Shown: positions 1 to 48,271 of the stretch, one piece after another
Layout: each line of letters starts with the position of its first letter
How positions within the stretch are numbered: the stretch's first letter is position 1
DNA from: a virus
Length of the DNA stretch: 48,271 nt
Strand: one strand, 5' to 3'
Virus record (IMG/VR): IMGVR_UViG_3300021082_000006
Program-made: the position numbers and the translations under genes
Notes under the pieces: model-generated
What the model was told of the DNA's origin: nothing
Seen by the model: the letters and a program-made list of their open reading frames with translations, nothing else
Databases searched by the model: none

Positions 1-127
1 CTGACGGAGGACATTCAGAGTGGGGACCGTGCCGCGGTGGCGAACGATGCCGCCGGCCTGGTCGGCCTCCGCCCCCGTTATGTTCGGCCCGGCCAGTACC
101 AGCAGCGGGCGCAGTACGAGCTCGAGC
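1..127. repeat. Terminal direct repeat, left copy. It is identical to 48145-48271 and looks like a contig-end overlap, implying a circular or circularly permuted 48,144-bp genome.
   Basis: I compared both ends base by base (ctgacggaggacattcagag...cagtacgagctcgagc). The repeat lies inside an ORF and keeps its phase, since 48144 is divisible by 3. Confidence 0.95.
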
Positions 128-273
128 AGGCGTTGATGGACGCGAAGCAGCGGCTCCGGCAGGGGCTCCGCAAGAGCCAGCGCCCGGAGCGGGATGAGGA
201 CCTCTACGACGAGTACGAGAACCGCGCACGCCGAGCACAGGAACGCTACATCGACCGGACCACGGCAGAGTGA
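1..273 (+). CDS. 3' end (last 90 codons plus TGA at 271-273) of the giant wrap-around ORF that starts at 38326.
   Basis: Same phase as the ORF that is open at the window end. The listed ORF 37..273 is only the part after an internal GTG. Confidence 0.85.
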   Translation: MTEDIQSGDRAAVANDAAGLVGLRPRYVRPGQYQQRAQYELEQALMDAKQRLRQGLRKSQRPERDEDLYDEYENRARRAQERYIDRTTAE

Positions 274-12713: not shown

Positions 12714-12748
12714 TTGTCGCGTTCACCCCTCAACGGAGTCTCGAGCCA

Positions 12749-13789: not shown

Positions 13790-13807
13790 CCCTCGAGCTG
13801 CACCAAC

Positions 13808-13843: not shown

Positions 13844-13879
13844 CAGGTGTATACCCACGACGACAAGGAGCCCCGCCCG

Positions 13880-27201: not shown

Positions 27202-27273
27202 GGTAGCTCGACCTATCGCCTGGGTGCCAGCATCCCGCTGGCGCTCATGGCGTGGGAGCTCGAAGGGGGCTCT

Positions 27274-29002: not shown

Positions 29003-29007
29003 CCACC

Positions 29008-30399: not shown

Positions 30400-30400
30400 C

Positions 30401-31168: not shown

Positions 31169-31186
31169 CCCAGGAGAGCGAGAGCC

Positions 31187-33309: not shown

Positions 33310-34014
33310 GTGGCGACCTCAGCCGAAACCATCATCGTCGCCGCCCTGGGGCGGTCGGCCAAGAACCGCCCGGACTACCTCGCCACCAAGGCCGGGGAGC
33401 TCCTCGAGCATTGCGCGAGGGCGCTGGCGTCCTGCTATGCCGTCGCGGCGCGGATCAACCCGACCTTCTTCGCGGCGCAGGCGACGGTGCCGTACAGCCC
33501 GACCCCTGGGGGGTGGTTTCGGCCCGTCAACGCGGAGTCGGTGTTCCAGGTGGAGCACAACCTGTCCGGGCGGTGCGACGTGGTGCCGTTCGATGATGCA
33601 AGCTCGACCGGGCGCCCGCGGCTGTACGAGGTGGGCCAGGTGTTCTACAGTCTGGGCAACACCGGACAATCGACGGGAGTGGCGGACCCGCCCCAGAGCG
33701 GCAACCTGGTGTTTCTGTTTTCCGAGGCGCCGGCGACCCTGACCAGCCTGGGCCAGGTGTTCGGTTCGACGTGGCCCGACCGCTTCAACCAACTCCTGGT
33801 GGACGAGGTCGCCATCTACCTCGCCTTGAAGGACGGGCGGCAGGAGGAAATCGGGGAGCTCAAGGCGAACCGGGACGGCTGGCTCAAGCTGTTCGTGACC
33901 TTCCTCGAGCACGAAAACGCCGCAACGGTGTTCCGGCACCAGCCGCGCAGCTTCGCAGACCCCGGCCAGGTGAAACAGGGCGACCTGTTCGCCGGCGGCA
34001 CTTCCGTTGTTTGA
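33310..34014 (+). CDS. Virion structural protein (234 aa).
   Basis: GTG start directly after the upstream TAA. Confidence 0.5.
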   Translation: MATSAETIIVAALGRSAKNRPDYLATKAGELLEHCARALASCYAVAARINPTFFAAQATVPYSPTPGGWFRPVNAESVFQVEHNLSGRCDVVPFDDASSTGRPRLYEVGQVFYSLGNTGQSTGVADPPQSGNLVFLFSEAPATLTSLGQVFGSTWPDRFNQLLVDEVAIYLALKDGRQEEIGELKANRDGWLKLFVTFLEHENAATVFRHQPRSFADPGQVKQGDLFAGGTSVV

Positions 34015-35857
34015 GCGCCCGCGGATCAAGCTGCCCTTTGGCGGCGGACTCGAGCGGGCCAGCGGCCTGTCCGAGCTCGAGCCGGGCGCGTTCCGGGACC
34101 TGCGGAACGTGCAGCTCTACGACGGCAAGGCGCAGGCGCGCCAGGGCCTCGACGTGCGGAGCGCCATCACGCTCAACAACGATGGCGTGACGCCCATGAC
34201 GGACGTGCCGCACCTGTCCGCCTTCCGGGCGAACCGGGTCGGCATTGTGGTGGGCTACTACAACCCGACGCGAGTGATGCAGGTGTTCCTGACCGCCGCG
34301 ACGGGCTTGAACCCGGTCCTGGTGGACTCGACCGGCGCCAACAGCACATGGGGGACGCTGGCGGTGGACGCCGGGCGCCCGCTGGTGTTCGGCGCGGAGG
34401 TGCAGCGGCAGTATGTGCTGGCGCACGACCACCCCCTCTATACGCGCCGGCTGGTCACCCGGTACTACAACCCGCTGAACGGGGCGGGCTTCAAGCTGGT
34501 CACCCTCCAGGCCAACCTGGACAACGCCGGCAACGCCGACGTTCGGTTCCGGGGCGTGACGCGGCACCTGTCGTATCTGTTCGGCTGGGGCTTCGGCACC
34601 GCGAGCGATGCCGACCGCCCGGAGATTGTCCGCAACAGCAAGCCGGGGGAGCCGCTGGTGTTCCTGCCGGAGCACTACTTCCTCGCGGGGATTCGCGGCG
34701 AGCCGGTGGTCCGCTGTGAATCGCTGGGCCAGGCGGGGCTCCTGGTGTTCAAGGAGACGGAGTTCCACATCATCGGCGGCTACGACCGGCAGACCTTCAC
34801 GATTCAGCCGGTGGACGCCACCTACGGCCTGGGCGGGAGCCAGCTCGCGGTGGTGGTCGATGGCGTGTGCTACTTCTGGAGCCTGACCGGGCCTCGAGCG
34901 ACGACCGGCGGGCCGAGCAAGGACCTGGGCTATCCCCTCGACGTGGAGGCCCCCGCGCCGGCGGACCTGGTGGCGAGCGGCGAGGCCAGCGACGGCTTTG
35001 CGTTCTTCAATCCGCGGCGGCGGGAAGTGGCGTTCGTGTTCGGCCAGCGCGGGTACGTCCTGCACCTCCAGGGCGACCGCCCCCGCTGGAGCTACCGCTC
35101 CTACGGCATCGAGCTCCGGTGTGCGGGGACCTTCTATACCGGCAGCGGCACCGCGGTGCCGACCGGCTACCCGGATGTGTCCACCAGCGCGCCGCTGGGC
35201 GCGAGCTCGTTCCGGGTCACCTGGATCAACACCGACGCGGTGGGCGACGAGACGGTGGAGTGCTGGCTCGCTCAGGGCGCGGGCGCGTTCACCAAGGTCG
35301 CGGACCTGCCGGTGACGGACCCCCTGGTGCTCACGTCGCAGAACTACGACTTCACCGGGCTTCTGCCTGGGACCACCTACACGGCGGCGTTCCGCTACCG
35401 CCGGGCGACGTTCTTTACGGACGGTTACAACAGCACCAACCCGCTTGATTGGCCGAACGTGCCGGCCCCGCTGTCGCGGGTCACGCAGGCGACGGATGCG
35501 GCGCCGGTCCCGCCGCCCCCAGGCTCGTTCGTGCGGGCGGGCTCGCCGGTGGGCACGGAGAGCGGTGGGAAGTTTTACACCAGCTATGGCTTCTCCTGGA
35601 CGCGCACCGTGTTTGACGCGGGGAGCACGTCCGAGATTGTCGCCACGACGAGCGCGATCCCGCCGCTCGGTTCCGCGGTGGCCGGCTACAGCGGGCCAAC
35701 AAGCGTGGTCGCGACGGCCCCGAATGCGCTGGGACCGTACCTGGTGACCTCGCCGCGGAGTCAGCGGTGGTTCTGGCTCCGGCACCGCCTGTCCGATGGC
35801 ACCAAGACGGTTCCCGAGGGCTGCGCCACGAACCCCGTCACGATCAACCCGGTATGA
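34007..35857 (+). CDS. Tail structural protein with a beta-propeller-like N-terminal region and an FN3-like domain.
   Basis: SSFRVTWINTDAVGDETVECW...YDFTGLLPGTTYTAAFRYRR is FN3-like. 616 aa. Confidence 0.5.
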   Translation: MFERPRIKLPFGGGLERASGLSELEPGAFRDLRNVQLYDGKAQARQGLDVRSAITLNNDGVTPMTDVPHLSAFRANRVGIVVGYYNPTRVMQVFLTAATGLNPVLVDSTGANSTWGTLAVDAGRPLVFGAEVQRQYVLAHDHPLYTRRLVTRYYNPLNGAGFKLVTLQANLDNAGNADVRFRGVTRHLSYLFGWGFGTASDADRPEIVRNSKPGEPLVFLPEHYFLAGIRGEPVVRCESLGQAGLLVFKETEFHIIGGYDRQTFTIQPVDATYGLGGSQLAVVVDGVCYFWSLTGPRATTGGPSKDLGYPLDVEAPAPADLVASGEASDGFAFFNPRRREVAFVFGQRGYVLHLQGDRPRWSYRSYGIELRCAGTFYTGSGTAVPTGYPDVSTSAPLGASSFRVTWINTDAVGDETVECWLAQGAGAFTKVADLPVTDPLVLTSQNYDFTGLLPGTTYTAAFRYRRATFFTDGYNSTNPLDWPNVPAPLSRVTQATDAAPVPPPPGSFVRAGSPVGTESGGKFYTSYGFSWTRTVFDAGSTSEIVATTSAIPPLGSAVAGYSGPTSVVATAPNALGPYLVTSPRSQRWFWLRHRLSDGTKTVPEGCATNPVTINPV

Positions 35858-36360
35858 GCGCGACCGAGCTGGCGCTGTTTGTCGGCCAAGGGCTGGGCAA
35901 CGCGCTGTGCCTGGTGGACTCCGGCATCACGGACAACGAGGTGCGCTTCGAGGTGATTGCGACGACTGACCCGGTAACCCCGGATGGCGAGGGCGGGGAG
36001 TCGGTGTTCTGCGGGCTGTGGATCACGGTGACGCACACGATGGGGTGCCGGCTCAAGATCACGCCCTTTGTCGATATGGTGGCGAAGCCGGTGACGACCT
36101 GGGACCTCCCGAGCCTGGTGACGCGGGCCATCGAAACGCGGGAAGTGCCGATCAACGACGTGCTCTACGACAGCATCGACCCGAGCGTGGAGCTCGCCCG
36201 ATTCTTTGCTCGCGGGCGCCGCATTCAGGTGAAGGTCGAGGTGCAGGTGCTCGAGGGCCTCTTTTATGTGGCCGGCGTAGGCGGTGGGGACCTCATCATC
36301 GAAAGCATCGAGATCGAGACGGACAAGGTGCAGGAGAGTCAGGAGACGGTGGCCGCATGA
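35854..36360 (+). CDS. Structural-module protein (168 aa).
   Basis: ATGA overlap. Confidence 0.55.
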   Translation: MSATELALFVGQGLGNALCLVDSGITDNEVRFEVIATTDPVTPDGEGGESVFCGLWITVTHTMGCRLKITPFVDMVAKPVTTWDLPSLVTRAIETREVPINDVLYDSIDPSVELARFFARGRRIQVKVEVQVLEGLFYVAGVGGGDLIIESIEIETDKVQESQETVAA

Positions 36361-36566
36361 AGCTGAGTCAGGTGCGGTGCCAACTGTTCACCGGGGTGAC
36401 GGCGCAGGTTATGTCCGACGTGAACAACTTCACTCGCGGGCTCTCGGTGACGATTACCTCCGCGGCGCCGGCGGGATTCGTGAGGGACCAGACGTTCATC
36501 GACGCGCAAATCAGCAGCGACGGCACCGCGGGCAACATGCAGGTGGCGCTCTTTTACACGGAGTAA
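36357..36566 (+). CDS. Small structural-module protein (69 aa).
   Basis: ATGA overlap. Confidence 0.5.
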   Translation: MKLSQVRCQLFTGVTAQVMSDVNNFTRGLSVTITSAAPAGFVRDQTFIDAQISSDGTAGNMQVALFYTE

Positions 36567-36571
36567 CGGTC

Positions 36572-37105
36572 ATGGGCAAGAAAAAGAACGTATTCGACCA
36601 GGACGCCATCAGCCGGCAGCTCCAGAGCGAGGCGACCCGCTTGGGCGGCGGCAACGTCGAGCGGGGCGCCTACGAGGGCTACAAGGGGTGGGACCCCAGC
36701 AAGCAGTTCCAGGACTTCGCCGCGGCGGGGCTGGCGGGCGCGAAGGATCAAATCGGCATCCAGCTCGGGGACCTCGCCGGCAAGGCCGCGGGGAACGGGC
36801 GGCTCAACACCGGCTACTTCGACCTCGACCAGGGCGACGTGGTGCGGAATGTCTACGGGGACTACGCCCGTGGCGTGCAGCAGGCGGGGCTCCAGACCGC
36901 CGGGATGCTCCAGCAGAAGAACCAGGACCTCCTGGGCTACGGCCAGGAGCGCCGGAACACCTACCTCGACCTCCTGACCGGCAACGCCGACCGGGCGACC
37001 GCGGAGGCGAAGGCCAACAAGAAGAAGGGGTTCCTCGGGACCCTGGGGGACATTTTCAAGACGGGCGCGGGCGTGGCGGGCAGCATCCTCAAGCCGGGCA
37101 TCTAA
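36572..37105 (+). CDS. Putative internal virion / ejection protein (177 aa).
   Basis: Position upstream of the giant gene. Gly/Ala/Gln-rich. Confidence 0.4.
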   Translation: MGKKKNVFDQDAISRQLQSEATRLGGGNVERGAYEGYKGWDPSKQFQDFAAAGLAGAKDQIGIQLGDLAGKAAGNGRLNTGYFDLDQGDVVRNVYGDYARGVQQAGLQTAGMLQQKNQDLLGYGQERRNTYLDLLTGNADRATAEAKANKKKGFLGTLGDIFKTGAGVAGSILKPGI

Positions 37106-37117
37106 GGGGACACGAAC

Positions 37118-38329
37118 ATGGGCCGATTCAGTCCGACCGTCCTGCCGGAGCGCGACGACCCGTTCGGGGAGTTCGTGGGGGACCTGGGCGAGGGGGTGCT
37201 CAACTACGCGACCGCCCGCCGGCTCAAGAAGGGCGGGGAGCGGGAGCAGGAGCGCCTCGAGCTCGCCAAGAAGGGCCAGGCCGACAACCTCGAGCTCCAA
37301 AAGGCGCAGAACGCGCTCGAGGAGGCCCGCTGGCAGCAGGCCCAGCGCCAACAGCAGGCCCGGCTCGGCACGCAGGGCATCGTGCCGGAGGAGGAGTCCG
37401 GCACGCGCACGCCCGTGAAGGTGGGTGGCCGCAACGTCACCCTGCCCGACCTGGCGGCGGCGACCGGGCAGGGGTGGGGCGGTGGTCCGCAGGACGTGAC
37501 CAATTTCACGCGAAACAAGGGGGCCTTCACGGTGGGCGGCGGCTACGCCTACGACCCCTCGAGGGACGTGAGCCGCGTCCAGCAGCAAGACTTGGCCGAC
37601 CGCTCCCTCGCCCAGCGGCAGCAGGAGCAGGCCCGGCAGCGGGCCGCACTCATCGCTCGCGGCTACTCGGAGGCGGACGCGGACCTGGTGGTGCAGGGCG
37701 GAGTGGGCGCGGAGAAGATCGGGCCGCTCGCGGCGGAGGGCGAGGAGCGCGACATCAAGCGGTACAAGGCGACGGTGCTCGCCCGTGAGCTCCAGGAGCA
37801 GTCGGGCGCCAACTGGCGGGACACGCATGGGCCGAACGCGGGCAACGCGGTCAACCCGGCGACCGGCATGACGAAGTACCAGGAGGCGCAGCTCCGCCGG
37901 CAGGACCTCCAGATTCAGGAGCAGCGGGACCAAACCGACCTCAAGACGGCGGACGAAACCTGGAAGCCGGACCCGATTATGAACCGCCCGCGGACGGCGG
38001 CGGACACGACGAAGATGGAGCAGGCTGACTCGATCCGTGGTGCGGTGCGGCAGCGCCGGGCGGGGCGGCAGTACGAGCCGCTGTTCGGGGGTGGGTCGCC
38101 CGCGGCCCAAGCGCCCGAGCAGCCGGGCCGGTTCGCGCCGAAGTCAGAGCTCACGGGGAGGCCGCAACTGTACGGCCCGCAGGCCACCCCGCAGCCGACC
38201 AAGGGTCCGCTCGGGGCGGACGGGACGCGCAAGCCGCCGCGTCAGCGCGCCGAGGAGCTCCGTAAGGCCGGGTTCCGCGGCGAGCAGATCAAGAGCCAGC
38301 TCCGCACCGAGGGATACGCGGTCAAGTGA
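37118..38329 (+). CDS. Putative internal virion / ejection protein (403 aa, Gln/Arg/Glu-rich).
   Basis: Position and composition. Confidence 0.4.
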   Translation: MGRFSPTVLPERDDPFGEFVGDLGEGVLNYATARRLKKGGEREQERLELAKKGQADNLELQKAQNALEEARWQQAQRQQQARLGTQGIVPEEESGTRTPVKVGGRNVTLPDLAAATGQGWGGGPQDVTNFTRNKGAFTVGGGYAYDPSRDVSRVQQQDLADRSLAQRQQEQARQRAALIARGYSEADADLVVQGGVGAEKIGPLAAEGEERDIKRYKATVLARELQEQSGANWRDTHGPNAGNAVNPATGMTKYQEAQLRRQDLQIQEQRDQTDLKTADETWKPDPIMNRPRTAADTTKMEQADSIRGAVRQRRAGRQYEPLFGGGSPAAQAPEQPGRFAPKSELTGRPQLYGPQATPQPTKGPLGADGTRKPPRQRAEELRKAGFRGEQIKSQLRTEGYAVK

Positions 38330-41300
38330 GCCCACTCCAGGGGCCGGACGACCCCAAGAAGAAGAAGCCCCCTCAGCCCGTCGTGGCGGAGGAGCCGTTC
38401 GACGTGGACGCCTTCGAGGCCGAGGCCGGGCAGCAGCCGGTGGCGGTCGAGGAGGAGCCGTTCGACGTTGATGCGTTCGAGGCGGAGGGCAACGTCGCCC
38501 AGGCCACCTTCGAGCCGGTGGAGACGCGCCCGGAGCGGGCGCGAGTCAACCTCAACCTGGGCCAGCCGGTTCAGGACCATTCCCCGATTCAGCGCGCCAT
38601 CCAGGGCACGCCGCGCCTGTCCGAACGCATCCCGACCGACAAGCCGGGGACCCTCGGGACGCTCAGTGCGATGGCGAGCGAGGTGGCAACGCAGAACGAG
38701 AACGCGGTGCGCGGCGGTGCCAAAGCCTGGTTCGGGGCGCCCGTCGAGGTGCAGGGGATGCTGCGGCGGATCACGGACGCGGCCAAGGCGACGGAAGCGC
38801 AGCCCGATGGGCTCGAGTTCGGGTTCGGAGACTACCGCTTGCGGCCAGGGCGGACGCTGCCGGCGGTGGGCAAGGCGCTTGAGGAGGTCGCGCCGACCGA
38901 GGAGAGCCTGGCCGGGCAAGAGAAGGTGGTGGAGGGTGTGTTCCAGCCCGAGGGTCCCGCCGGCAAGGCGGGCGAGGTGCTGGGCGGGTTCGCCACCGTG
39001 GCCGCGGAGTACGGCATGGTGGGGCGGGCCACCCGCGGGCTCATGGGGGAGGGGTCCTTCCTGGCCCGGCTGGCGGCACAGGGGCCGCTCGGGACGGCCA
39101 CCGCGAACGCGCTGGTGGTGGCGCCCGCGGACGTGGCCTTCGGGGTGGCCGACCCGTACCCGTCGTTTGTCGAGCGGTTCGGGGAGGTGGGCGGGCGCGC
39201 CGCCTCCGCCGGCGTCAACGTCCTCGCCAACGTGGCGGCGGAGTACGGCCTCCACGCCGCGGCGGACATTACCGGCAGGAAGGCCCGGAACGCCCGCGAC
39301 TACGGGGATATGCGCCGGGTGGGCGAGAGCCTGGACGACCTGGGCCGCATCGAAGCCAGCATGAAGGTGCAGGAGTCGGCGGTGATGCAGGGCCGGAGCG
39401 ACCTGTCCAACGCGCTCGAGGAAATGCTCAACCGGAAGCGGGCCGAGGAGCTCGCGGCCCGGCAGGCGCAGGAAGCCGCCCAGGCCGCGGTCCAGAACGA
39501 GCCCCCGAGCCCGATGGGTTCGCTCCTCCGCGGGGCGGACGAGGAGCTCCTCGAGGGCCAGCGGGGCGCCGCGGCCCGGCGCGGGAACGCGGCGGAGGAA
39601 GCCGCCAAGGCCGCGGAGGCGGAGCAGGCCAGGGAGGCGCTCGCCAACGCCATCCGGGGCTTCCACGAAGCCGGCGGAGTGGCACCGGTCGAGGGGGCGG
39701 CGACCCCCTTCCAGCGCAACTACGAGAGCATTTTCGCCAAGGCGGACGAGGTGCTCCCGGCAGAACCACCCGGCGAGCCGCCGGCAGACGCGGGTGGAGC
39801 TGCCGAGGCGGAGCCGCCCGCCTGGGACGCCCACATGACGCCCATCGAGCGGGAGGACCTCCGCACGCGGGTGCAGAGCGAGCCGCGCCTGACGGACTTT
39901 GACGACGACGACATTCTCGATGCCCGGATGCGCCAGAAGGACCAGGTGCCGGTGGACTACAGCCAGACCCCGGAGGGCCTCGAGAAGCGCCAGGCGAACG
40001 TGGAAACGCTGCTCGACAACCGGGGCGAGGCGGAGTTCGGGGGTGAGCTGGGCGACATTCCGGGCCGGGCCGAGGCCCCGCACCGGGCCGGCGAAGTGCC
40101 GGAGCTCCACATCCTGACGGGCTCACCCGGCAGCGGCAAGAGCACCATTGTGAAGGGCCTCATCCAGGACGAGGGGATGTTGGGCGCGACCCTGGTGGAC
40201 ACGGACGAAGGGAAGAAGCTGATCGAGGGGTTCGATGAAGGCCGCGGGGCCAACCTCGTCCACAAAGAGTCGCAGGCGCACTGGCGGGAGCTGATGGACC
40301 GGGGCCAGGCCGAGGGCCGCGACCTAATCATGCCGACCGTGGGCACCAACCAGGCGGTGCTCGAGGGCATCATCCAGCGGGCGAAGCAGCGGGGATACGA
40401 GGTATTCCTGCACCACGTCGATATACCAAAGGCGGAAGCGGGTAAACGGGCGGTGGCGCGGTTCCGCGACCGCACTGGTAAACTTGCGCGGTTCGTAGAC
40501 CCCCACTACGTTGTGAATGTGGTCGGGGATGCGCCGCGGGAGGTACACGGGCGCGTCAAGCGGCTCCCGGAGCTCTCCGGGACGCGGCACCTGGACAACA
40601 TGGTACCGAGAGGATCGAAGCCCAATGTCATCGAAGGGACCGGGCGCTACGCCCCCACCGGGGGAGAAGCCGCGGAACTACGGGCCGGGGGTGGGACCCT
40701 GGACGAAGGACTCGGAGGAGCTGGCGCTGGAGGTGTGGGAGAAGGCGGCGCAGACGCAACGGGGCTTCCCGCCCCCGCCGCCCCCGAGCCCGCGGCGCCG
40801 CAAGCGCCCCGCCCCCGAATCAGGGGAGTAGAAGGACCCGAATCTCGCGTCACGCTGGCGGACGGCACCAAGTACCCGGTGACCTTCCGCATCGTGGAAG
40901 CGGGGGACCTCCAGCCGTCCCACAACGCCCAGACCTTCGAGCCCAACCCCGTGTATCCCAAGGGGGTCCAGGGCCGGCGGTACCACGCCGACCGCGCCGC
41001 CCAGGAGAACGTGGTCGAGGCGGCGACCAAGCTCGACGCGGACCTCCTCCTCAACGACACCGGCACCGCCGAGGGCACGCCCATCGTCACCGGGGGCGGC
41101 ACCGTGCTGTCCGGGAACCAGCGCACCATGACGCTCCAGCGGGCCGCGGCGGTGGACATTGCCGAGCCCGGCAACCGCTTCGAGATGTATGTGGATGCGT
41201 TGCGGGAGCGGCTGGAGTCGCTGGGCCTGCCCGAGGACGCGCTCGACCAGTTCGAGAACCCGGTGCTGGTGCGGGAGGTGTCGGCGGAGCATGTGGACCC

Positions 41301-44300
41301 GACCAACCCCGAGGCCATGCAGGCGTTCAACGCGGCCAGCGATGTAGCGACGGGCAAGGCCAAGTCTGCGATTGACGAGGGCATGACCCGCGCCACCAAG
41401 CTGATGCGGGCCGAGGACGCCATCAGCTTTTTCTCCGAGACGATGGGCGACGAGACACTTCGCGCCTACCTCGATGGCCCCCGCGGGAAGCAGTTCCTCG
41501 ACGCCCTGGTGCGCGATGGCGTCGTAAGCCGGGCCGAGCTGGGCCGGCTGGTGCAGGACGGGAAGCTCACGCCGGAAGCGAAGCAACTGCTCGAGCGGAC
41601 CATGTACGCCGCGGCGGTGGGCGACCCGGACGTGCTCGAGCGCATCCCCGGCAAGATCAAGCAGAAGCTCGACACCGCGGTGCCGGCCATTGTCCGCGCC
41701 AACGCGATTGAGGGCTACTCCCTCCAGGAGCCCTTGCAGTCGGCGCTCCGCGAGCTCGCCAACGTGAGCGAGGCGGGGGCCGGCATCAGCTCGCTCGCAG
41801 ACCTCCGCGCCCAGGCTTCCATGTTCGGGGACGACCCGCTGGTGATGGCGGGCCGGGGGCTGGCGGACTACCTCGAGGCGAACCCCAAGGCGAAGGTGAC
41901 GGAGGCGTTCCAGCGGTATGCGAACGGGGCCAAGGAGGCGACCGCGCATGGCGGGGCCGACGACATTTTCGGCACGCCACCGGAGACGCCGGAGCAGCTT
42001 GTAGCGCGGGCGTTCGGTCGGCCCCCGGAGGAGGGCAAGGGCCTGGGCCGGGCCGGCTACATCGGGGTGCGGGACAAGCCGCTGCCCGAGCGGACCTGGC
42101 AAGAGGAGGTGACGGCGCTTCGAGCGGACGGGGAGCACGAGGCGGCGGACGCCCTGGCGTCGTTCATGGAGGGCAGCGAGCGCGACACCCCGGTGTTTCA
42201 CGGGACCGTCTACAGTTTTGACGACTTCATCTACCACCAGGATGACGTTGGGCACCATACCGGCAACGCCGACCAGGCGAACGACCGGCTCGCCATTCTC
42301 CACACGGCGGACCCGGCGAACCATGCCGCGGGCGGGCAGCTGATGCCGCTCTGGGTCCGCGGCAAGTACGCCGAGGTAACGGACTTCGGCAGCTGGGAGG
42401 CCGATCGGGTCGCCTCGGAGCTCCTGGCCGACAAGACCATCACCACCGAGCAGTACCAGCGGATCGTCCAGACCGGCGGGCGGTCGCAGCAATTCCGCGT
42501 GCTCCGCTGGACGCTCAAGGAGAACGGCTATTCCGGCGTCAAGTACCGGAACGCCTTCGAGGGGGGCGCCAGCCAGGAGTGGCGGGCCAACAACGAATAC
42601 AAGCGAAAGACGGGTCAGCCGGAAATGACCCGCCAGGAGTTCATGGAGGCGGCTTACCCCGGCAAGTCTCTCCTGCAAGAAGGGGCGGGCGACCAAAACT
42701 TCAGCTACGCGGTGTTCGAGCCGGGGGACCTGAAGTCTGCGACCGGCAACCGCGGGACGTTCAACCCAGGGGTGCCGGACGTGCGGGGCGCCTCGGGCGT
42801 GGGCGGGATGGCCGGCATGGTGCTGGGCGGTGGCGCCGGCTTCGCGGCGGGGAGCCAGGTGGGCGACACGCCCGAGGAACGGCTGCGGAACGGGCTCCTG
42901 GCTGGGCTGGCGGGCCTGACGCTGGGCGGCGGGCTGGGCCTGACCGCCGGCGGGAAGGGCACGGGGCGCGGCATCCTGGGGCTCGAGGGCCTCGAGCGCG
43001 GGGCGATGGGCGAGCGCCGGGTGCCGCTGCCGGGCCGGAGCTGGCAGGACCACGCGGCGGGGCTGGAGCGGGCCGGCCACCCCGAGGCGGCGGCGAACCT
43101 GACCCGCTTCATGGGAAACAGCAAGGTGCCGAAGGTGGTGTTCCACGGGACCACCCACGACTTCAACGCCTTCGATCCCACCAGGGCGAACATCGAGAAC
43201 AACTGGGGGCAGGGCATCTATTTCACCGATGCTCCCCTGGACATGATGGCGAATTACGCTCGCGTGGGGCCGGACCTGACCCAGCGCATCGAGATGACCG
43301 CCGAGCAGCTCCAGTGGGACGAGACGATGACCGCCGAGGAGGCGCGGAGCCGGGCGCGGAAGCAGCTTGTTGGCCCGCATGAGGGCGCGGCGATGCCGGC
43401 GTACATCAACCTCGAGAACCCGGCCATCGTGGGCGGGGCGGACGAGACGCGCCTCACCCTCGAGGAGCACTTCGATGCGGAGGGGGAGTGGGACGGCGAG
43501 GAGCCGACCGGGAGCCTGATCGGGTTCATCGAGAGCCTCCAGGACAACGCCGAGCGGTTCGGCGTCCAGCACGGGGACATGCTGAGTGTGGTCGAGCGCC
43601 TGTACGGGGAAGCGGCGGGCGGCGACGGCCTCACGGTGCGCGAAGCACAGAAGATCGTCCAAAACTCCGATGAGCTGCTGGACGCGACGGACGACAACGG
43701 GGCCATTGCGAGCTCGGAGCTGGTGCGCCTCGCGCTCGAGCACGTTGGGTTCGATGGCGTGATCGACCGCACCGTCTACGACAAGTTCGGCCCGCCGAAG
43801 CGGGGCCTGTTCAAGGGTGTTGGCGGGATGCAGGGCCTCGAGCCGACCACAACGCACTACGTCGCGTTCAAGCCGGAGCAGATCAAGAGCGCCACCGGGA
43901 ACCGGGGGACATTCAGCCCGGATGTAACCGATGTAACGGGTGCCATTGGGGACCAACCCAGGAAGGGGCCGCGGGAGCAGCCGGAGCTCCAGGAGGGCGG
44001 CGAGTCGGATGGCGGCGACGAGCCGACCTGGGAGGAAATCCAGGACAGGATGGGCCAGCCCAGGGTGCATGACTCGCCCGAGGGGTTCAGCTACTACATC
44101 GGCAACAACCTCAGCGGCCTGGAGCACCACCTCAAGCAGGCGGACGAGCTCGACCGCACCGGGCGCGTTACCTACGAGGCATACGACGACCCGGACGACC
44201 CGGAGTACAGTCGGCCCGCCAGGGAAGCCGACGAGGGGGAGACGGATTACCTCCGCCAGGTGCTCCCCCAGCGGACCCGCAGTGCCCGGCACCACATCAA

Positions 44301-47300
44301 GCAGCTCGTCCGGGAGTTCCGGGAGAAGCACCCGCAGGAGCCGGTGCCGCACGCGGATCGCCTGCGCGCCCAGGGCTTCGAGGTTCCCGAGCCCGGCGCC
44401 CTGAGCCTGTTCGATGAGGCGCCCGAGCAGCCGCGCTCGCGCTACGAGGTGGACGAGGACGCAACCGGCTACGACCCGGTGAACGAGCCGGACGACTACG
44501 AGCTCCTCCCGTTCGAGGTGGAGCGCGAGAAGATGCTCCAGAGCGGCGACGGGTGGGAGCGGGTGCGGGCGATGCGGGACAAGGCGCAACGCTGGGACAG
44601 CCCGGCGTGGGACACGCCGGAAGGTGCGGAGGCACACGCCCAGGTCCGGCGCGAGCAGCTCAAGTTGAGCCAGGCGGAGCGCGAGGCGCGTGGGCACGAC
44701 CGCAGTGCCGAGCTCCGCGATGCCCGGGCGGACATGGACCTCAAGTACAACGAGCAGTACGGCGGCGCCTCTCCGCGCTTCTTGCCAGCGCAGGAGCGGT
44801 ATCGGGCGGCGATCATGGCGTTCAACGAGGAGGGACCCACGACCGGGCGCTACGTCTACGCCGACGATGGCGGCACGCTCCGGTTCTTCGAGAAGGAGGA
44901 CCTCCTCGACACGATGCAGCAGCTCGCGGACGCCAGGGCTATTTCGGACGTGCTCCCGTCGAGCGACCCTGGGCGGGACTCGCCGGGCTACGCCAAGGCC
45001 ATGAAGGCGTGGGTGAAGGCCAACAACGCCTCCATGAGCACCCTGCCGCGCAAGATCGACCACATGCTCGGCGCGCACCCGGAGCTCCGCGAAGCAATCC
45101 AGGGCTGGAAGCCGGGCGTGAAGCCGGAGGCCGGGCCGGACCTGTTCGCACAGGGGCCGGAAGCACAGGGCATCACCCCCAGCCATACCGAGTGGCTCCG
45201 CCAGCGCCCGCCCGCGCCGGCGCCGAAGGGGATGCTCGGCCTCGAGGACATGGCCGCGCCCGAGGGGCCGGCGCTCTCGCGCCTGGAGGAGACGGATGCG
45301 GTCTACAAGGCACGCGCCGCGGAGTACGAGGAGGCGCGGGTCAAGTACCACGACCAGGAGATTGGCGACGAGGAGTTCCTGGCCGCTCGCCAGGCGCGGG
45401 ACGAGGCGCTCGCGGCGTGGGAGGAGGCCGAGGCCGAGGCGTCCATGCCGGCGCTCCTGCGGAGCGCGAAGGCCGAGACGGCGAAGCCGACGCACACCGT
45501 CGTGCAGGAGGGTCCCGCCTCCTGGGGGGTGAAGCAGCCGGACGGCCAGACGGTACGCTCGGGCCTGCTGACGAAGGGCGGTGCGGAGGAGATTGCCGCC
45601 TCGCTCGACCACGAGCGCCCGACGCCCAGGGCGCCGCGGTATGAGCTGTTCCCGGAGGAGAAGGCGGCGCGGGACGTGGAGCGGGAGGCCCAACAGGCGC
45701 TCAAGATGGACACCAGCCCGGTGCGGGGACCGCAGGGCATGAAGGACGCGCTCCGCCGGGCCAACCTCATCGTGAACGACCCGAAGCAGGCGTTCCTCGC
45801 CAAGAACGGGCGGGCGACCCAGGTATACAAGGACGCCCAGGCGCTCCTCGCCCGCGGGGAGAAGATCGGCACCAGCGAGCTCGGGCACCGGCTCGAGGAG
45901 CTCCGCGGGGAGGAGAAGCGCGAGACGCCGAAGGACGACGGCACGCTCACGCTGTTTGCGAACCCGATTCCCCAGGTGCTCCAGGGGATCGCCAGCCACC
46001 GGCTTCCCTCGACCGCGGTGCTGGCGACGACGGGCGCGCTCCTCTCCGACAGCGACGACCCGAACATCCAGAAGATCGGGCACTTCACGGTGGCCCTGGC
46101 CGCGCTCCACGGGATCGGCATGAAGCGCATCAGTGCTGCCGGCGGGGCGGCGGGCCGGACGATGGTGCGGTCCATGATGCGGCACGACGCCGGCAAGGCC
46201 ACGCTCCGGTTCCTCCACCCCGAGGCGCTCCTCTCGCCCGAGGTGAAGGAGGCCATCAAGGCGTTCGAGCTGCTCCGCTCGAAGGGCAAGGCCATCCGGG
46301 GCCAGTGGGAGAAGAAGGCCCAGGCGCTCGGGCCGGTGGGCGACCGGGTGGTGTCCGACCTCATCGAGCTCGAGGACCACGGGGAGGGCGGGCAGCTCAA
46401 CCCGGCGGACATGCAGGCAACGCTGGACGTTGCCGCCGGCATCGCCGCGGAGTGGGAGCAGATCGGGGACCTCAAGGTGCAGTCGGAGGTGCTCCCCCAG
46501 CACGCGGTAGACGCGCACCGGGGGACCTACGCCGGGCCGCGGCTCTACGCCGAGTTCGAGGCCCTGGACGCGCTGGGCCAGAAGGTGGCGCCGGGCCAGC
46601 CGCGGAAGGTCCGCATCCAGGATCAGAAGCGGCGCACCCTGGGCAGCGACCTCGAGAGCATGGTGACCCGCTCGGAGCTCGGAGAAATCCGGGAGTCCAG
46701 TGCGCGGCTCCGCGGGCTCGAGAAGGGCTACGCGGACGTAGCGGCGGCGAAGCTGTTCCAGAGCCTCCGCTCGATTCCGGGCGTGGTGCATCCTGACTTC
46801 AAGATGGCCCTCGATGACTTCCTCGCGGCGCGCTCGATGTGGCAGCAGGCGAAGGCGGTGAAGGACGTGGCCGGCCAGCAGATTGCCGAGGGCATGATGC
46901 AGCAGTCCAAGAGCGACATGGACGCCATCACCCGGCAGTTCAGCACCGGCCAGGGCGACTACGTGTCGATGCCGGACGGGAAGGGGATGGGCGTGCTCCG
47001 CGGGATGGTGGTGACCAAGGAGGTTGCCAACAGCCTGAACGGGCTCCCAGACCTCCGGTTTACCGGGCCGTTCATGCGGTTCTGGAAGGCCAAGACCACG
47101 ATCTTCAACCCCGGCACCCACGTCGGCAACGTGATGAGCAACGTCACGATGCTGCACATGGCGGGCGTGCCGGCGTGGAAGCAGCCGGTACTCCTCCGGG
47201 GCGCCGCGAAGGACATGGCGAGCTACGGGCCGGCGACCCAGGCGCTCGCGGAGGCCGGCGTCCTGGACGTGAACGTGGTCACCGCCAACACCGAGGGCGC

Positions 47301-48271
47301 TGCCGGCACGGTGCGCGCCACCCGGAAGGAGCTCCTCCGCCAGCTCAAGACCGGGAAGAAGCAGGCGACGGACGTGCTCGAGGAGCTCGGGCTCAAGGAA
47401 ACGACCTGGGACCGCATCAAGGCGCTGGGGGAGAAGATTCGCGGCCCGCTGGCCCGGCTCTACAACAACGAGGACAACATCTTCCGGGTCGCCTACGCGC
47501 AGCACGCCTCGACACCGGTGTCTCGCGGGGGCCTGGGCATGTCGATGGACGAGGCGGTGGAAGCCTCCCGGAAGGACCTCATCGACTTCCGCACCCGCTC
47601 GCCGGCCATCCGGCTCCTGGGCGGGTCCATCGCGCCGTTCATCCTGTACCCGGCCAAGGCGATCCCGACCTTCGCCCGGCACGTCATTGAACACCCGTGG
47701 CGCTACCTCGGCCTGGTGGCGGCATGGACCGCGCTCGACAAGCACAGCCAGGAGAAGGTGGGACCCATCGACCAGCTCGACCTCCCGCCGGACCAGCGGC
47801 GCGGTTGGGCCGGGACGGCGCTCCCAGGGCTGACACAGGTGCCGTTCGAGGGACCGAGCGGGGCGAAGGGCGCGTTCGACATTGCGCGCTGGACGCCGCT
47901 CTCGGGCCTGACGGACGCCTCGCCCCCAGGGTCCGCGACTTCCGTGGCGTTCGATAACTGGCCGCGGCTCCTCTCGCCCAGCGGGCCGCTCACCGACATT
48001 GGCGCCCGGCTGGCGAACACCGACCCGTACACCGGGCAGAAGTTGGTGCCGCGCTCGGCTACGCCGGGGGAGTTTGGTGAGGTGGTGGCGGAGGGTGCCG
48101 CGGACCTGCTGCTCCCGCCGGCCCTCGGCTTCCATCGGCGCCGGCTGACGGAGGACATTCAGAGTGGGGACCGTGCCGCGGTGGCGAACGATGCCGCCGG
48201 CCTGGTCGGCCTCCGCCCCCGTTATGTTCGGCCCGGCCAGTACCAGCAGCGGGCGCAGTACGAGCTCGAGC
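38326..48271 (+). CDS. Giant multi-domain ('polyvalent') protein, 3,363 codons in total. The ORF is open at the window end and finishes at 271-273 after circularisation.
   Basis: GTG 38326 overlaps the upstream stop (GTGA). I translated every line from 38341 to 48271 in the line-start phase and found no stop. Readable motifs are GSPGSGKST (40120-40146), VLSGNQRT (41104-41127), FHGT (42196-42207 and 43141-43152), GQGIYFTD (43207-43230) and KSATGNRGTF (42733-42762 and 43885-43914). Confidence 0.8.
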   Translation, partial: MSPLQGPDDPKKKKPPQPVVAEEPFDVDAFEAEAGQQPVAVEEEPFDVDAFEAEGNVAQATFEPVETRPERARVNLNLGQPVQDHSPIQRAIQGTPRLSERIPTDKPGTLGTLSAMASEVATQNENAVRGGAKAWFGAPVEVQGMLRRITDAAKATEAQPDGLEFGFGDYRLRPGRTLPAVGKALEEVAPTEESLAGQEKVVEGVFQPEGPAGKAGEVLGGFATVAAEYGMVGRATRGLMGEGSFLARLAAQGPLGTATANALVVAPADVAFGVADPYPSFVERFGEVGGRAASAGVNVLANVAAEYGLHAAADITGRKARNARDYGDMRRVGESLDDLGRIEASMKVQESAVMQGRSDLSNALEEMLNRKRAEELAARQAQEAAQAAVQNEPPSPMGSLLRGADEELLEGQRGAAARRGNAAEEAAKAAEAEQAREALANAIRGFHEAGGVAPVEGAATPFQRNYESIFAKADEVLPAEPPGEPPADAGGAAEAEPPAWDAHMTPIEREDLRTRVQSEPRLTDFDDDDILDARMRQKDQVPVDYSQTPEGLEKRQANVETLLDNRGEAEFGGELGDIPGRAEAPHRAGEVPELHILTGSPGSGKSTIVKGLIQDEGMLGATLVDTDEGKKLIEGFDEGRGANLVHKESQAHWRELMDRGQAEGRDLIMPTVGTNQAVLEGIIQRAKQRGYEVFLHHVDIPKAEAGKRAVARFRDRTGKLARFVDPHYVVNVVGDAPREVHGRVKRLPELSGTRHLDNMVPRGSKPNVIEGTGRYAPTGGEAAELRAGGGTLDEGLGGAGAGGVGEGGADATGLPAPAAPEPAAPQAPRPRIRGVEGPESRVTLADGTKYPVTFRIVEAGDLQPSHNAQTFEPNPVYPKGVQGRRYHADRAAQENVVEAATKLDADLLLNDTGTAEGTPIVTGGGTVLSGNQRTMTLQRAAAVDIAEPGNRFEMYVDALRERLESLGLPEDALDQFENPVLVREVSAEHVDPTNPEAMQAFNAASDVATGKAKSAIDEGMTRATKLMRAEDAISFFSETMGDETLRAYLDGPRGKQFLDALVRDGVVSRAELGRLVQDGKLTPEAKQLLERTMYAAAVGDPDVLERIPGKIKQKLDTAVPAIVRANAIEGYSLQEPLQSALRELANVSEAGAGISSLADLRAQASMFGDDPLVMAGRGLADYLEANPKAKVTEAFQRYANGAKEATAHGGADDIFGTPPETPEQLVARAFGRPPEEGKGLGRAGYIGVRDKPLPERTWQEEVTALRADGEHEAADALASFMEGSERDTPVFHGTVYSFDDFIYHQDDVGHHTGNADQANDRLAILHTADPANHAAGGQLMPLWVRGKYAEVTDFGSWEADRVASELLADKTITTEQYQRIVQTGGRSQQFRVLRWTLKENGYSGVKYRNAFEGGASQEWRANNEYKRKTGQPEMTRQEFMEAAYPGKSLLQEGAGDQNFSYAVFEPGDLKSATGNRGTFNPGVPDVRGASGVGGMAGMVLGGGAGFAAGSQVGDTPEERLRNGLLAGLAGLTLGGGLGLTAGGKGTGRGILGLEGLERGAMGERRVPLPGRSWQDHAAGLERAGHPEAAANLTRFMGNSKVPKVVFHGTTHDFNAFDPTRANIENNWGQGIYFTDAPLDMMANYARVGPDLTQRIEMTAEQLQWDETMTAEEARSRARKQLVGPHEGAAMPAYINLENPAIVGGADETRLTLEEHFDAEGEWDGEEPTGSLIGFIESLQDNAERFGVQHGDMLSVVERLYGEAAGGDGLTVREAQKIVQNSDELLDATDDNGAIASSELVRLALEHVGFDGVIDRTVYDKFGPPKRGLFKGVGGMQGLEPTTTHYVAFKPEQIKSATGNRGTFSPDVTDVTGAIGDQPRKGPREQPELQEGGESDGGDEPTWEEIQDRMGQPRVHDSPEGFSYYIGNNLSGLEHHLKQADELDRTGRVTYEAYDDPDDPEYSRPAREADEGETDYLRQVLPQRTRSARHHIKQLVREFREKHPQEPVPHADRLRAQGFEVPEPGALSLFDEAPEQPRSRYEVDEDATGYDPVNEPDDYELLPFEVEREKMLQSGDGWERVRAMRDKAQRWDSPAWDTPEGAEAHAQVRREQLKLSQAEREARGHDRSAELRDARADMDLKYNEQYGGASPRFLPAQERYRAAIMAFNEEGPTTGRYVYADDGGTLRFFEKEDLLDTMQQLADARAISDVLPSSDPGRDSPGYAKAMKAWVKANNASMSTLPRKIDHMLGAHPELREAIQGWKPGVKPEAGPDLFAQGPEAQGITPSHTEWLRQRPPAPAPKGMLGLEDMAAPEGPALSRLEETDAVYKARAAEYEEARVKYHDQEIGDEEFLAARQARDEALAAWEEAEAEASMPALLRSAKAETAKPTHTVVQEGPASWGVKQPDGQTVRSGLLTKGGAEEIAASLDHERPTPRAPRYELFPEEKAARDVEREAQQALKMDTSPVRGPQGMKDALRRANLIVNDPKQAFLAKNGRATQVYKDAQALLARGEKIGTSELGHRLEELRGEEKRETPKDDGTLTLFANPIPQVLQGIASHRLPSTAVLATTGALLSDSDDPNIQKIGHFTVALAALHGIGMKRISAAGGAAGRTMVRSMMRHDAGKATLRFLHPEALLSPEVKEAIKAFELLRSKGKAIRGQWEKKAQALGPVGDRVVSDLIELEDHGEGGQLNPADMQATLDVAAGIAAEWEQIGDLKVQSEVLPQHAVDAHRGTYAGPRLYAEFEALDALGQKVAPGQPRKVRIQDQKRRTLGSDLESMVTRSELGEIRESSARLRGLEKGYADVAAAKLFQSLRSIPGVVHPDFKMALDDFLAARSMWQQAKAVKDVAGQQIAEGMMQQSKSDMDAITRQFSTGQGDYVSMPDGKGMGVLRGMVVTKEVANSLNGLPDLRFTGPFMRFWKAKTTIFNPGTHVGNVMSNVTMLHMAGVPAWKQPVLLRGAAKDMASYGPATQALAEAGVLDVNVVTANTEGAAGTVRATRKELLRQLKTGKKQATDVLEELGLKETTWDRIKALGEKIRGPLARLYNNEDNIFRVAYAQHASTPVSRGGLGMSMDEAVEASRKDLIDFRTRSPAIRLLGGSIAPFILYPAKAIPTFARHVIEHPWRYLGLVAAWTALDKHSQEKVGPIDQLDLPPDQRRGWAGTALPGLTQVPFEGPSGAKGAFDIARWTPLSGLTDASPPGSATSVAFDNWPRLLSPSGPLTDIGARLANTDPYTGQKLVPRSATPGEFGEVVAEGAADLLLPPALGFHRRRLTEDIQSGDRAAVANDAAGLVGLRPRYVRPGQYQQRAQYELE
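40625..40831 (+). other. Alternative-frame (+1) coding-like segment inside the giant ORF (MSSKGPGATPPPGEKPRNYGPGVGPWTKDSEELALEVWEKAAQTQRGFPPPPPPSPRRRKRPAPESGE, TAG at 40829-40831).
   Basis: Between about 40663 and 40830 the giant-ORF frame uses atypical A/T-ending codons (gga, gct, ggt, gaa, gca). The +1 frame uses the genome-typical G/C-ending set. Confidence 0.35.
48145..48271. repeat. Terminal direct repeat, right copy (identical to 1-127).
   Basis: Same 127-nt string as the window start. Confidence 0.95.

Follow-up and report, generated by a model that had tools for sequence, protein, structure and literature searches.

This analysis concerns a single very large gene in IMG/VR virus record IMGVR_UViG_3300021082_000006, a viral DNA sequence of 48,271 nucleotides (nt) that we refer to in its entirety as the window. 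The gene, here called the giant gene, starts at a GTG codon at position 38326, runs through the end of the window and continues at its beginning. We judge its product, the giant protein, to be a further member of the known class of phage polyvalent proteins, in a family that shows some undescribed features. A preliminary description, made from the letters of the sequence, had read the gene as an open reading frame (ORF) of 10,092 nt from GTG 38326 to TGA 271-273, about 21% of the genome, and translation of the circularised sequence bore this out. The features on which this reading depends are the following.

38326..48271, plus strand: giant gene, first part; codons 1-3273 end at 48144, and 48145-48271 duplicates 1-127
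1..273, plus strand: giant gene, wrap-around end; codons 3274-3363 and the TGA at 271-273, from the circularised translation
40678..48135, minus strand: antisense ORF of 2,485 residues, a non-coding codon-position shadow of the giant gene; the coding signal is on the plus strand

The giant gene is intact and crosses the contig junction

Positions 1-127 of the window match positions 48145-48271 exactly, and these 127 nt are the longest terminal overlap. Because the ends are identical and no longer overlap is present, the contig represents a circle of 48,144 bp with an assembler-style overlap. The frame of GTG 38326 is stop-free to the end of the window, and its first stop after circularisation is the TGA at 271-273, which makes the gene 3,363 codons long without the stop and 20.96% of the genome with it. 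The giant gene starts within GTGA, the sequence in which the preceding 403-residue gene ends, and it ends in a second GTGA that also contains the GTG start of the following gene (270-596).

DNA of 69% G+C often contains long spurious ORFs, and the window has 172 ORFs of at least 100 residues as well as the 2,485-residue antisense ORF. Given also that the giant gene crosses the contig ends, a 10-kb ORF might be an artefact, produced by an assembly chimera, by false circularisation or by sequencing errors that fused several genes in GC-rich DNA. We find this scarcely credible. At a stop probability of 0.022 per codon, derived from base composition, the probability of 3,363 stop-free codons is ~3e-33, and the longest open frame in 100 shuffled genomes had 691 codons. 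The G+C fractions at the first, second and third codon positions (GC1/GC2/GC3) of the giant gene are 0.73/0.47/0.91, and the uniformly high GC3, which the preliminary description had also remarked on, was found in this frame only (0.83-0.95 in each full block of ~1 kb and 0.79 in the final 102-nt remainder). The remaining plus-strand frames over the gene contain 68 and 22 stops. The antisense frame that shares the third positions has only 3 stops, which is why we regard the 2,485-residue minus-strand ORF as a shadow; the stop counts and the plus-strand coding signal agree with the earlier suggestion to this effect.

An independent assembly gave the same result. A Logan contig of 48,174 nt (locus L008, SRR7007031) matches the rotated window at 100% identity over 30,092 nt and contains the whole giant gene in its interior, away from the contig ends; its product (P0157) equals that of the window at 3,363 of 3,363 residues. 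The same protein (P0013) is also encoded on a JGI/IMG contig of 48,267 nt, except that V is written for the GTG start. Since the independent assembly is identical and shows no indel, the ORF is intact, including the Gly-rich stretch at 40.6-40.9 kb for which a re-check had been suggested. Thus, the giant gene is confirmed as one real gene that wraps around the contig junction. It had been called hidden, which is true of the window's linear ORF list, from which it is absent, but public collections (IMG, Logan/ENA) already call the exact 3,363-residue protein, with Zeta_toxin, ddrB-ParB and ART-PolyVal matches attached.

Within the giant coding sequence, ARAGORN placed a 97-nt tRNA-Arg(acg) at 44435-44531 on the plus strand. 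A genuine tRNA gene was rejected at this position, as no Rfam tRNA reached the gathering threshold anywhere in the window, and the prediction is probably a false positive.

Domain content of the giant protein

Domains were assigned by Pfam scans of the giant protein in eight tiles and by PHROG and NCBIfam scans. All of the following segments lie on the plus strand.

38326..39969, plus strand: N-terminal region, residues 1-548; lineage-specific, Ala/Gly-rich, with one weakly hydrophobic stretch at residues 255-276
38389..38487, plus strand: twinned acidic/aromatic motif EEPFDVDAFEAE, residues 22-33 and 43-54; exact repeat
40090..40542, plus strand: zeta-toxin-like P-loop kinase, residues 589-739; Pfam Zeta_toxin E 2e-15, AAA_33 E 2e-11
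40633..40815, plus strand: Gly/Ala/Pro-rich linker, residues ~770-830, from composition; within the 40.6-40.9 kb stretch
40861..42015, plus strand: DdrB-like ParB domain (residues 846-985) with a helical extension to residue ~1230; Pfam ddrB-ParB E 2e-20
42190..42762, plus strand: ART-PolyVal module 1, residues 1289-1479; degenerate, Pfam E 1e-4, 23.4 bits (cut-off 31.2)
42778..43005, plus strand: Gly-rich hydrophobic, glycine-zipper-like segment, residues ~1485-1560; 26% Gly
43129..43914, plus strand: ART-PolyVal module 2, residues 1602-1863; Pfam E 4.6e-18
43963..45939, plus strand: charged acidic/basic region of ~660 residues, 1880-2538, from composition
45943..48144 and 1..270, plus strand: all-alpha 'chassis' module, residues 2540-3363 (2540-3273, then 3274-3363)

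The N-terminal region (residues 1-548) had no match in Pfam, PHROG or NCBIfam and no relative among 160 family proteins. The kinase that follows scores 57.2 bits against Zeta_toxin (PF06414; cut-off 22.3), with AAA_33 scoring nearly as high. Its Walker A sequence, GSPGSGKST (residues 599-607), aligns to the Walker A of zeta toxin 1GVN, and its VDTD (624-627) aligns to IDND in the catalytic-Asp region of the same toxin. The ParB domain reaches 73.6 bits against ddrB-ParB (PF18763; cut-off 27.6), contains an SGNQR motif (residues 929-933) and lies in a late-gene context. The ParB region also matches phrog_5143 over 381 residues (E 7.5e-23), and its extension to residue ~1230 is conserved together with the ParB domain in six relatives.

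The two ART-PolyVal modules are paralogous, with a common R[TS]WQ...FHGT start and a common KSATGNRGTF end. In the published description of this ADP-ribosyltransferase (ART) domain, the catalytic triad consists of His in strand 1, Tyr in strand 2 and Asp in strand 5 (H-Y-D; PMC5512222). From an alignment with the ART modules of other giant proteins and the H-Y-D description of Iyer et al., module 2 (PF18760, 66.8 bits, cut-off 31.2) has the complete triad: H1607 in FHGT, Y1632 in GIYFT and D1810 in GFDGV. In module 1 only the His remains (FHGT, 1291-1294): the Tyr segment is missing through a deletion, and GYSGV stands at the Asp position. Because both Tyr and Asp of the triad are lost, module 1 is probably catalytically dead. 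Module 2 shows 33-40% identity to the ART modules of other giant proteins and of Myxococcus phage Mx1. These are its closest relatives, and in Mx1 the module is fused to a NUDIX hydrolase; a distant relative (P0162) carries PF04233 (Phage_Mu_F). An insert in module 2 (window 43519-43665, residues ~1732-1780) had weak, non-significant similarity to UPF0335/GapR in a hidden Markov model (HMM) search of Protein Data Bank (PDB) sequences (E ~0.5-0.9).

Between the modules, the glycine-zipper-like segment contains the highest hydropathy peak of the giant protein (residues 1523-1543), and a comparable insert is present in relatives P0001, P0002 and P0004. The charged region behind module 2 had no match in Pfam, PHROG or NCBIfam and no homologue in a search of 5.8 billion proteins or within the family; it is a probable flexible spacer.

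The preliminary description had read the acidic N-terminal repeat, the kinase and the ParB-like domain correctly. Of its two FHGT...KSATGNRGTF modules separated by a Gly-rich segment, both belong to ART-PolyVal, but the first lies under the Pfam threshold and has a degenerate triad. The C-terminal region of ~1,400 residues with hydrophobic stretches that it had described is in fact made of the ~660-residue charged stretch, which has no relatives, and a conserved all-alpha module of ~820 residues, and hydrophobic stretches are scarce and weak: only three 19-residue windows exceed a Kyte-Doolittle value of 1.2. The tile-wise profile scan that it had suggested gave matches to Zeta_toxin, ddrB-ParB and ART-PolyVal, and no numbered LPD domain above the Pfam threshold. 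No MuF (Phage_Mu_F) domain was found in the giant protein with Pfam.

The C-terminal module is conserved and widespread

No Pfam, PHROG or NCBIfam model covers residues 2540-3363, and no PDB sequence matched the module in an HMM search; the same search with the ParB tile also returned nothing. A word-indexed search with the last ~820 residues gave five matches only. An exhaustive profile search of 1.84 billion representatives gave 3,868 clusters at E <=1e-3, 967 of them at E <=1e-30. Of 128 full-length representatives, 127 have the end of the module no more than 150 residues from the C-terminus (median 8.5), and the sequence ahead of the module ranges from 78 to 2,949 residues in these 128 proteins. 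This leading part carries GGDEF, RadC, Zeta, ParB, LPD1, LPD5, LPD37, PBECR5 or InPase domains in some members, and methyltransferase, HATPase_c, cytidylyltransferase or ART-PolyVal domains in others. A constant C-terminus behind changing front domains is the pattern expected of a chassis with exchangeable cargo. Among the closest family members the commonest cargo is GGDEF (diguanylate-cyclase-type), found in 6 of 17 large representatives (P0001, P0002, P0014, P0018 and others, at L004 among further loci).

AlphaFold returned a confident all-alpha model of the module from a 41-sequence alignment (predicted local distance difference test, pLDDT, 88.6; predicted template modelling score, pTM, 0.87), which was used in place of a 6-sequence input that had given an unusable pLDDT of 55. 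With Foldseek, the best match of this model in the PDB had E 0.64. In BFVD, 37 matches were found at E <=1e-3, nearly all of them C-terminal fragments of phage proteins, under names such as 'large polyvalent protein associated domain-containing', 'Zeta toxin domain containing' and 'ART-PolyVal-like'. They included proteins of the cultured phages Cellulophaga phi19:3, Ralstonia Alix, Microbacterium Shocker and Arthrobacter GurgleFerb, and an LPD38 protein (E 6.6e-7, TM-score 0.33). When the 41-sequence profile was compared by hhalign with four LPD38-type C-termini, the probability was 89% (E 2e-6, 663 columns), and Pfam LPD38 was mapped onto residues ~3151-3318 of the giant protein; a 6-sequence profile against the single sequence of P0006 was negative. 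These profile and model comparisons are suggestive of a remote relationship between the module and the carrier region that bears LPD38 in podophage polyvalent proteins.

Among 50,697 phage records, a tblastn search with the C-terminal 973 residues gave no match, and distant family members matched only predicted Helicobacter pullorum prophages. One of these (L009, BK070138) encodes at 7888-14025 a cysteine-free protein of 2,045 residues with a distant version of the module. Its gene lies in the head module rather than behind the tail genes; it follows the terminase gene and a gene of portal size and precedes one of capsid size, a slot that usually belongs to MuF-like minor head proteins.

Relatives suggest growth by insertion

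The closest relative found, P0007 (2,019 residues, contig ERR11670703_61497), is 42% identical to residues 595-1230 of the giant protein in its Zeta-ParB part and 54% identical to residues 2539-3361 in its C-terminal module, which is joined directly to the ParB part. It occupies the same genomic slot and is followed by an Amidase_2 lysin, a YqaJ exonuclease (41% identity) and another common gene (54%). Relative to P0007, the giant protein has ~1,300 extra residues (~1231-2538), namely the degenerate ART module 1, the glycine-zipper segment, the intact ART module 2 and the ~660-residue charged region, and its N-terminal 550 residues are unrelated. From this comparison, the giant protein looks like a P0007-type protein with ~1,300 residues added between ParB and the module. 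The comparison also speaks against an assembly artefact: P0007 holds Zeta-ParB and the same C-terminal module in a single ORF, the boundaries of the insertion fall at domain linkers, and in 127 of 128 representatives the module shares one ORF with a long N-terminal extension.

Among other relatives, P0011 (1,944 residues) combines ParB with the C-terminal module, and P0006, P0008 and P0009 combine Zeta, ParB or RadC with an LPD38-type C-terminus. The domain combination had been put forward as undescribed. Its exact set was indeed found in this phage only, among billions of proteins searched, but every domain is a listed polyvalent component, and Zeta, ParB and the same C-terminal module already occur together in P0007, so that the specific part is the ART-bearing insertion.

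Position at the end of the virion genes

Nearly all genes of the window lie on the plus strand. The neighbouring genes that bear on the role of the giant protein are listed here.

18702-20450, plus strand: large terminase (Pfam/PHROG scans)
22247-24517, plus strand: P22-like portal (Pfam/PHROG scans)
25837-27201, plus strand: major capsid protein (Pfam/PHROG scans)
37118..38329, plus strand: upstream gene of 403 residues; GTGA overlap with the giant gene, 0 Cys, no Pfam, PHROG or NCBIfam match
2980-4134: YqaJ-type exonuclease, 41% identity to the gene beside P0007
4127-5149: YqaJ partner gene, 54% identity to the gene beside P0007

As the preliminary description had stated, the giant gene comes after the portal and capsid genes. 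It closes a same-strand virion block that includes the large terminase, and is followed by small genes and the YqaJ recombination module. The early region (2980-5149, 6119-6778, 8298-9194 and 10346-11110) encodes the YqaJ exonuclease and its partner, an HNH endonuclease, an RNase_T-family exonuclease and a DUF932 protein, and no integrase was found among the window ORFs scanned. A layout of virion genes, giant gene, small genes with a lysin, and then YqaJ/RecT or Rad52 recurs around relatives. Genes 31187-37105 are syntenic with those of the phage that carries P0006 (29-45% identity), and in that phage P0006, an LPD38-type giant with Zeta and ParB, holds the syntenic position. The start/stop overlap with an upstream gene is found in relatives as well, with a 343-residue gene in L001/L002 and an end-truncated gene in L006; in L007, a 343-residue gene ends 3 nt ahead of the giant start. 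The 403-residue upstream product is a candidate companion internal or ejection protein.

The only cultured relatives of the portal are those of Arthrobacter Jasmineviruses, at ~22% identity over >80% of the protein. Electron microscopy showed Jasmine to be a podovirus; its tail measures 10 nm, and its G+C content is 45.9% (PMC5513430). The Jasminevirus GurgleFerb has no annotated tape-measure gene and has a 1,803-residue 'hypothetical protein' encoded directly before lysin A and holin. From the portal relationship and the lack of a recognisable tape measure, the phage described here would be short-tailed. Its host is probably an actinobacterium, given the ~69% G+C, a relative on a Mycobacteriales metagenome-assembled genome contig and an Rv2525c-like hydrolase adjacent to that relative. 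In the large-terminase region (18001-20000), the GC skew of the window rises to a peak of +0.29, far beyond its values elsewhere in the genome, and the AT skew becomes negative.

Since tail genes are located at the far end of the virion module, the giant gene might encode a fixed structural component of the tail, for example a tape measure, a central fibre, a tail spike or an extension of the nozzle, with the enzymatic domains decorating the tail. Some tape-measure proteins embed enzymatic motifs, the C-terminal module is long and all-helical, and a very weak BFVD match was to a 'tape measure domain protein' (E 0.049, probability 0.16). Yet no tail-tube, tail-chaperone or distal-tail genes follow the giant gene; lysis and recombination genes come next, both here and in relatives. 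Family members range from ~900 to 3,700 residues, about fourfold, in contigs of 45-52 kb, and a length ruler could not vary in this way at similar genome size. The 10-nm tail noted above belongs to the cultured portal relative, a podovirus, and the analogue in phage phi24B is missing from the cryo-electron microscopy (cryo-EM) tail model. No receptor-binding or beta-helix fold was detected, and ejected polyvalent proteins typically contain globular kinase, ParB and ART domains. A tape measure or tail fibre was rejected on the genes that follow, the length range and the tail of the relative, and we consider a fixed tail component of any kind quite improbable.

Absence of cysteine

The giant protein contains no Cys among 3,363 residues, and the 30 other translated proteins of the window contain 82 in 9,146 (0.9%; P ~7e-14). 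The family as a whole has 43 Cys in 287,507 residues, with none in 141 of 151 representatives, and the LPD38-type giants, GurgleFerb gp26 and the Helicobacter prophage giant also have none. The same composition was found in proteins whose ejection has been established experimentally (loci L011, L014 and L013).

N4 ejection proteins gp50, gp51 and gp52: 0 Cys in 4,294 residues
P22 ejection proteins gp7, gp20 and gp16: 0 Cys in 1,309 residues
T7 ejection proteins gp14, gp15 and gp16: 1 Cys in 2,261 residues

Terminases, polymerases, helicases and tail proteins of the same phages contain ~0.5-1.5% Cys; for their replication and terminase proteins the figure is ~0.9-1.4%. Only 2 of the 2,807 residues of the phi24B giant protein are Cys, and both fall among the first 13 annotated residues (MPGHCAGFFYGVCMAY...); translation of this protein (L012, HM208303, 34149-42572) may really begin at the Met at position 14. 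The absence of Cys agrees with a protein that threads a narrow channel unfolded or loosely folded. No published link between ejection proteins and Cys absence was found in the open-access literature. Other Cys-free proteins of the virion block are encoded at 37118-38329 (403 residues), 32062-33309 (415 residues), 27247-27681 (144 residues) and 28169-28636 (155 residues).

These data bear on a second alternative, in which the giant protein would not enter the virion at all and would be a late cytoplasmic multi-enzyme, either an anti-defence or host-takeover hub or a superinfection-exclusion factor, that acts in the producing cell only. Its enzymatic domains would work in the cytoplasm too, the virion association is itself inferred, and Pfam, PHROG and NCBIfam scans revealed no capsid-targeting domain of a known type (MuF, portal fusion, MPTase). 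However, host-modifying enzymes made only at the end of infection would have little to act on, and the family-wide loss of Cys matches proven ejection proteins, not cytoplasmic phage enzymes. Translational coupling on both sides of the giant gene, with a position that is conserved in distant relatives, also argues against a cytoplasmic role. In addition, DdrB-ParB and ART-PolyVal proteins were reported to adjoin virion genes (Iyer et al. 2017), and gp47 of phi24B is virion-borne. We consider a purely cytoplasmic protein unlikely.

A twinned motif near the N-terminus

To score the N-terminal repeat across the family, we used the best ungapped 8-mer self-match in the first 100 residues, with a BLOSUM62 score of >=30. 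This score was reached by 44.5% of 128 full-length N-termini versus 1.8% of 1,078 internal 100-residue segments of the same proteins, and half of the N-termini scored above the maximum of 20 shuffles. The motifs begin within the first ~25 residues, recur 12-35 residues further on and are acidic and aromatic or hydrophobic. Their sequence varies from protein to protein (GLFDDL[IV]P, DPLGL[LF], YSP[DE]NPF, PVD[FY][ND]PF, DDAEFEAW and YDWEAEY). What the family shares is thus the twinned architecture of the motif and not its sequence. The motif is a candidate docking peptide for a capsid, scaffold or portal partner, or a candidate ejection leader. Many family members also share the sequence 'APAPRRGI' ~60-110 residues from the N-terminus.

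Proposed role of the giant protein

The polyvalent architecture and the genomic context, together with the precedents of phi24B gp47 and N4 virion RNA polymerase (vRNAP), point to a capsid-packaged, ejected multi-effector, a reading to which we assign a probability of about 70%. The giant protein would be made late, with its translation coupled to that of the last virion genes, and a few copies would be packed in the capsid. The ~820-residue all-alpha module would serve as the constant chassis for incorporation and ejection, and the twinned acidic peptide may act as a docking signal. At infection, the protein would exit by way of the portal and the channel of the tail, loosely folded into a 'beads-on-a-string' chain, a passage that the absence of Cys would help. 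In the cell envelope or cytoplasm, the cargo domains would then act ahead of any phage gene expression: the zeta-like P-loop kinase might act on cell wall or nucleotide-sugar metabolism, and ART module 2, the sole intact ADP-ribosyltransferase, might modify a host target.

The gene, its domains and position, the architecture of the family and the composition are direct results of the analysis; packaging, ejection, the targets and the roles of the C-terminal module and the N-terminal motif are inferred, and several observations count against packaging and ejection. PHROG and Pfam scans of the tail-region genes (24527-25816 and 28924-38329, 35767-36360 not included) gave no match, so that the podovirus morphology depends on portal relatives of 22% identity and on the lack of a tape-measure candidate. 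No peptidase (MPTase, MuF-C) was found above Pfam thresholds in the giant protein, and many polyvalent proteins carry one. The link to phi24B gp47 would be a remote profile-profile match (89%): Pfam LPD38 (PF18857) had no match at E <=1 in the C-terminal tiles, and for that reason we keep the module apart from the LPD38 label. The hhalign comparison of the module with GurgleFerb gp26 was not significant, and the BFVD match between the module and an N4-like vRNAP, in the C-terminal third of the latter, was weak (E 5e-3, TM-score 0.23). In the kinase, LVIEGTG of zeta aligns to LIMPTVG of the giant protein, which leaves the conserved Glu of the toxin without a counterpart; the domain is termed a zeta-like P-loop kinase, with no assigned substrate, because this Glu is not conserved. 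Finally, Cys absence is not exclusive to ejection proteins, as scaffolding proteins, the P22 needle, the N4 capsid protein and the phi24B tail spike also lack Cys.

Significance

Giant polyvalent proteins are thought to be the first phage weapons in the host, ahead of any phage gene expression. Very few of them, to our knowledge, are experimentally supported, and we know of none from phages of high-G+C Gram-positive hosts. The giant gene is a clean case, with a complete circular genome that was assembled independently, and the comparison with its closest relative shows a mode of growth, in which a 1,300-residue cassette with two ART modules was inserted between the cargo and the constant C-terminal module. 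Side results of the analysis are a widespread, unannotated C-terminal module with a confident model, the enrichment of twinned N-terminal peptides, and an avoidance of Cys like that of every classic ejection protein checked.

A broader interpretation is tentative, and we lean somewhat against it. The giant protein may be one case of a large, unnamed delivery platform for phage-ejected effectors, with at least 3,868 clusters, a constant chassis of ~820 residues, exchangeable cargo, a twinned N-terminal peptide in many members whose sequence co-varies with the phage, and Cys nearly absent; total avoidance of Cys might then be a general, sequence-only signature of proteins that pass through the tail. 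If this were true, it could become possible to predict ejected proteins from genome sequences and to exploit the chassis as a carrier of engineered cargo into bacteria. If avoidance of Cys were required for passage through the tail channel, it would provide a cheap genomic predictor and a design rule for phage-delivered cargo. A nucleotide cyclase delivered by the phage particle, as the GGDEF cargo would be, is worth a separate look.

Comparison with known systems

Phage-type polyvalent proteins were described by Iyer, Burroughs, Anand, de Souza and Aravind (2017, J Bacteriol 199:e00245-17; PMC5512222), and the preliminary description was right to invoke this concept, both for the domains and for the virion-gene neighbourhood. 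As in that class, the giant protein is a very large polypeptide with several conflict-related enzymatic domains (Zeta_toxin, ddrB-ParB and, twice, ART-PolyVal in one ORF), encoded beside virion structural genes on the same strand. ART-PolyVal, DdrB-ParB and the zeta-like kinase are among the polyvalent domains listed, and DdrB-ParB proteins adjoin virion genes (PMC5512222). Unlike in the published class, the most conserved part of the giant protein, the C-terminal module, lies outside any Pfam family. The zeta-like kinase, which is MuF-fused in phages according to Iyer et al. (PMC5512222), is here fused to ParB and the chassis module.

The phi24B protein gp47 is the giant polyvalent protein of a podovirus, the Stx phage phi24B (2,811 residues). 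It is nearly free of Cys, and its LPD38-type C-terminus would be a remote homologue of the module. This protein contains LPD5, LPD1, LPD38 and MuF-C, is abundant in purified virions by mass spectrometry, was not seen in cryo-EM and was proposed to be a capsid-packaged ejection protein (bioRxiv 10.64898/2026.04.10.717836). Other podophage giants of the LPD38 type occur in Pelagibacter HTVC034P, Bacillus Page/Pony/Pascal, Vibrio phages and, as 'DarB-like', Ralstonia. The giant protein differs from this type in having neither a Pfam LPD38 match nor a metallopeptidase, and the similarity is seen by profile-profile or fold comparison only.

The nearest cultured lineage, judged by the portal, provides GurgleFerb gp26 (1,803 residues, Arthrobacter phage), which is likewise a Cys-free giant; its gene closes the virion genes and precedes lysin and holin. 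A fold match to the module (E 2.2e-4) covers the C-terminal part of gp26. This protein differs from the giant protein in having no Pfam domains at all, and the two genomes differ in G+C content and replication modules.

The Dar proteins of P1 (DdrB, DarB) and Alt of T4 are packaged in the head and injected with the DNA, as is proposed for the giant protein. P1 DdrB is the prototype of the ParB domain and T4 Alt that of injected ADP-ribosyltransferases, Alt belonging to the R-S-E clade of ARTs and not to the H-Y-D clade (PMC5512222). These phages differ in being myoviruses, and their proteins are separate, smaller and proteolytically processed.

In N4, the capsid contains the 3,500-residue vRNAP (gp50) in 4±1 copies per virion, and this protein is driven out along the tail as beads on a string (PMC13434306). 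The giant protein resembles it in its size, in its three-part layout of N-terminal region, catalytic cargo and large helical C-terminal domain, and in the absence of Cys. Unlike gp50, it has no RNA polymerase domain and no MPTase, and its host is probably Gram-positive or actinobacterial, that of N4 being Gram-negative. Membership in the N4 vRNAP family was rejected, as Pfam, PHROG and NCBIfam scans revealed no RNA polymerase or peptidase family and the fold match was weak. By analogy, the giant protein may nevertheless work like N4 gp50, though it is not a member of that family.

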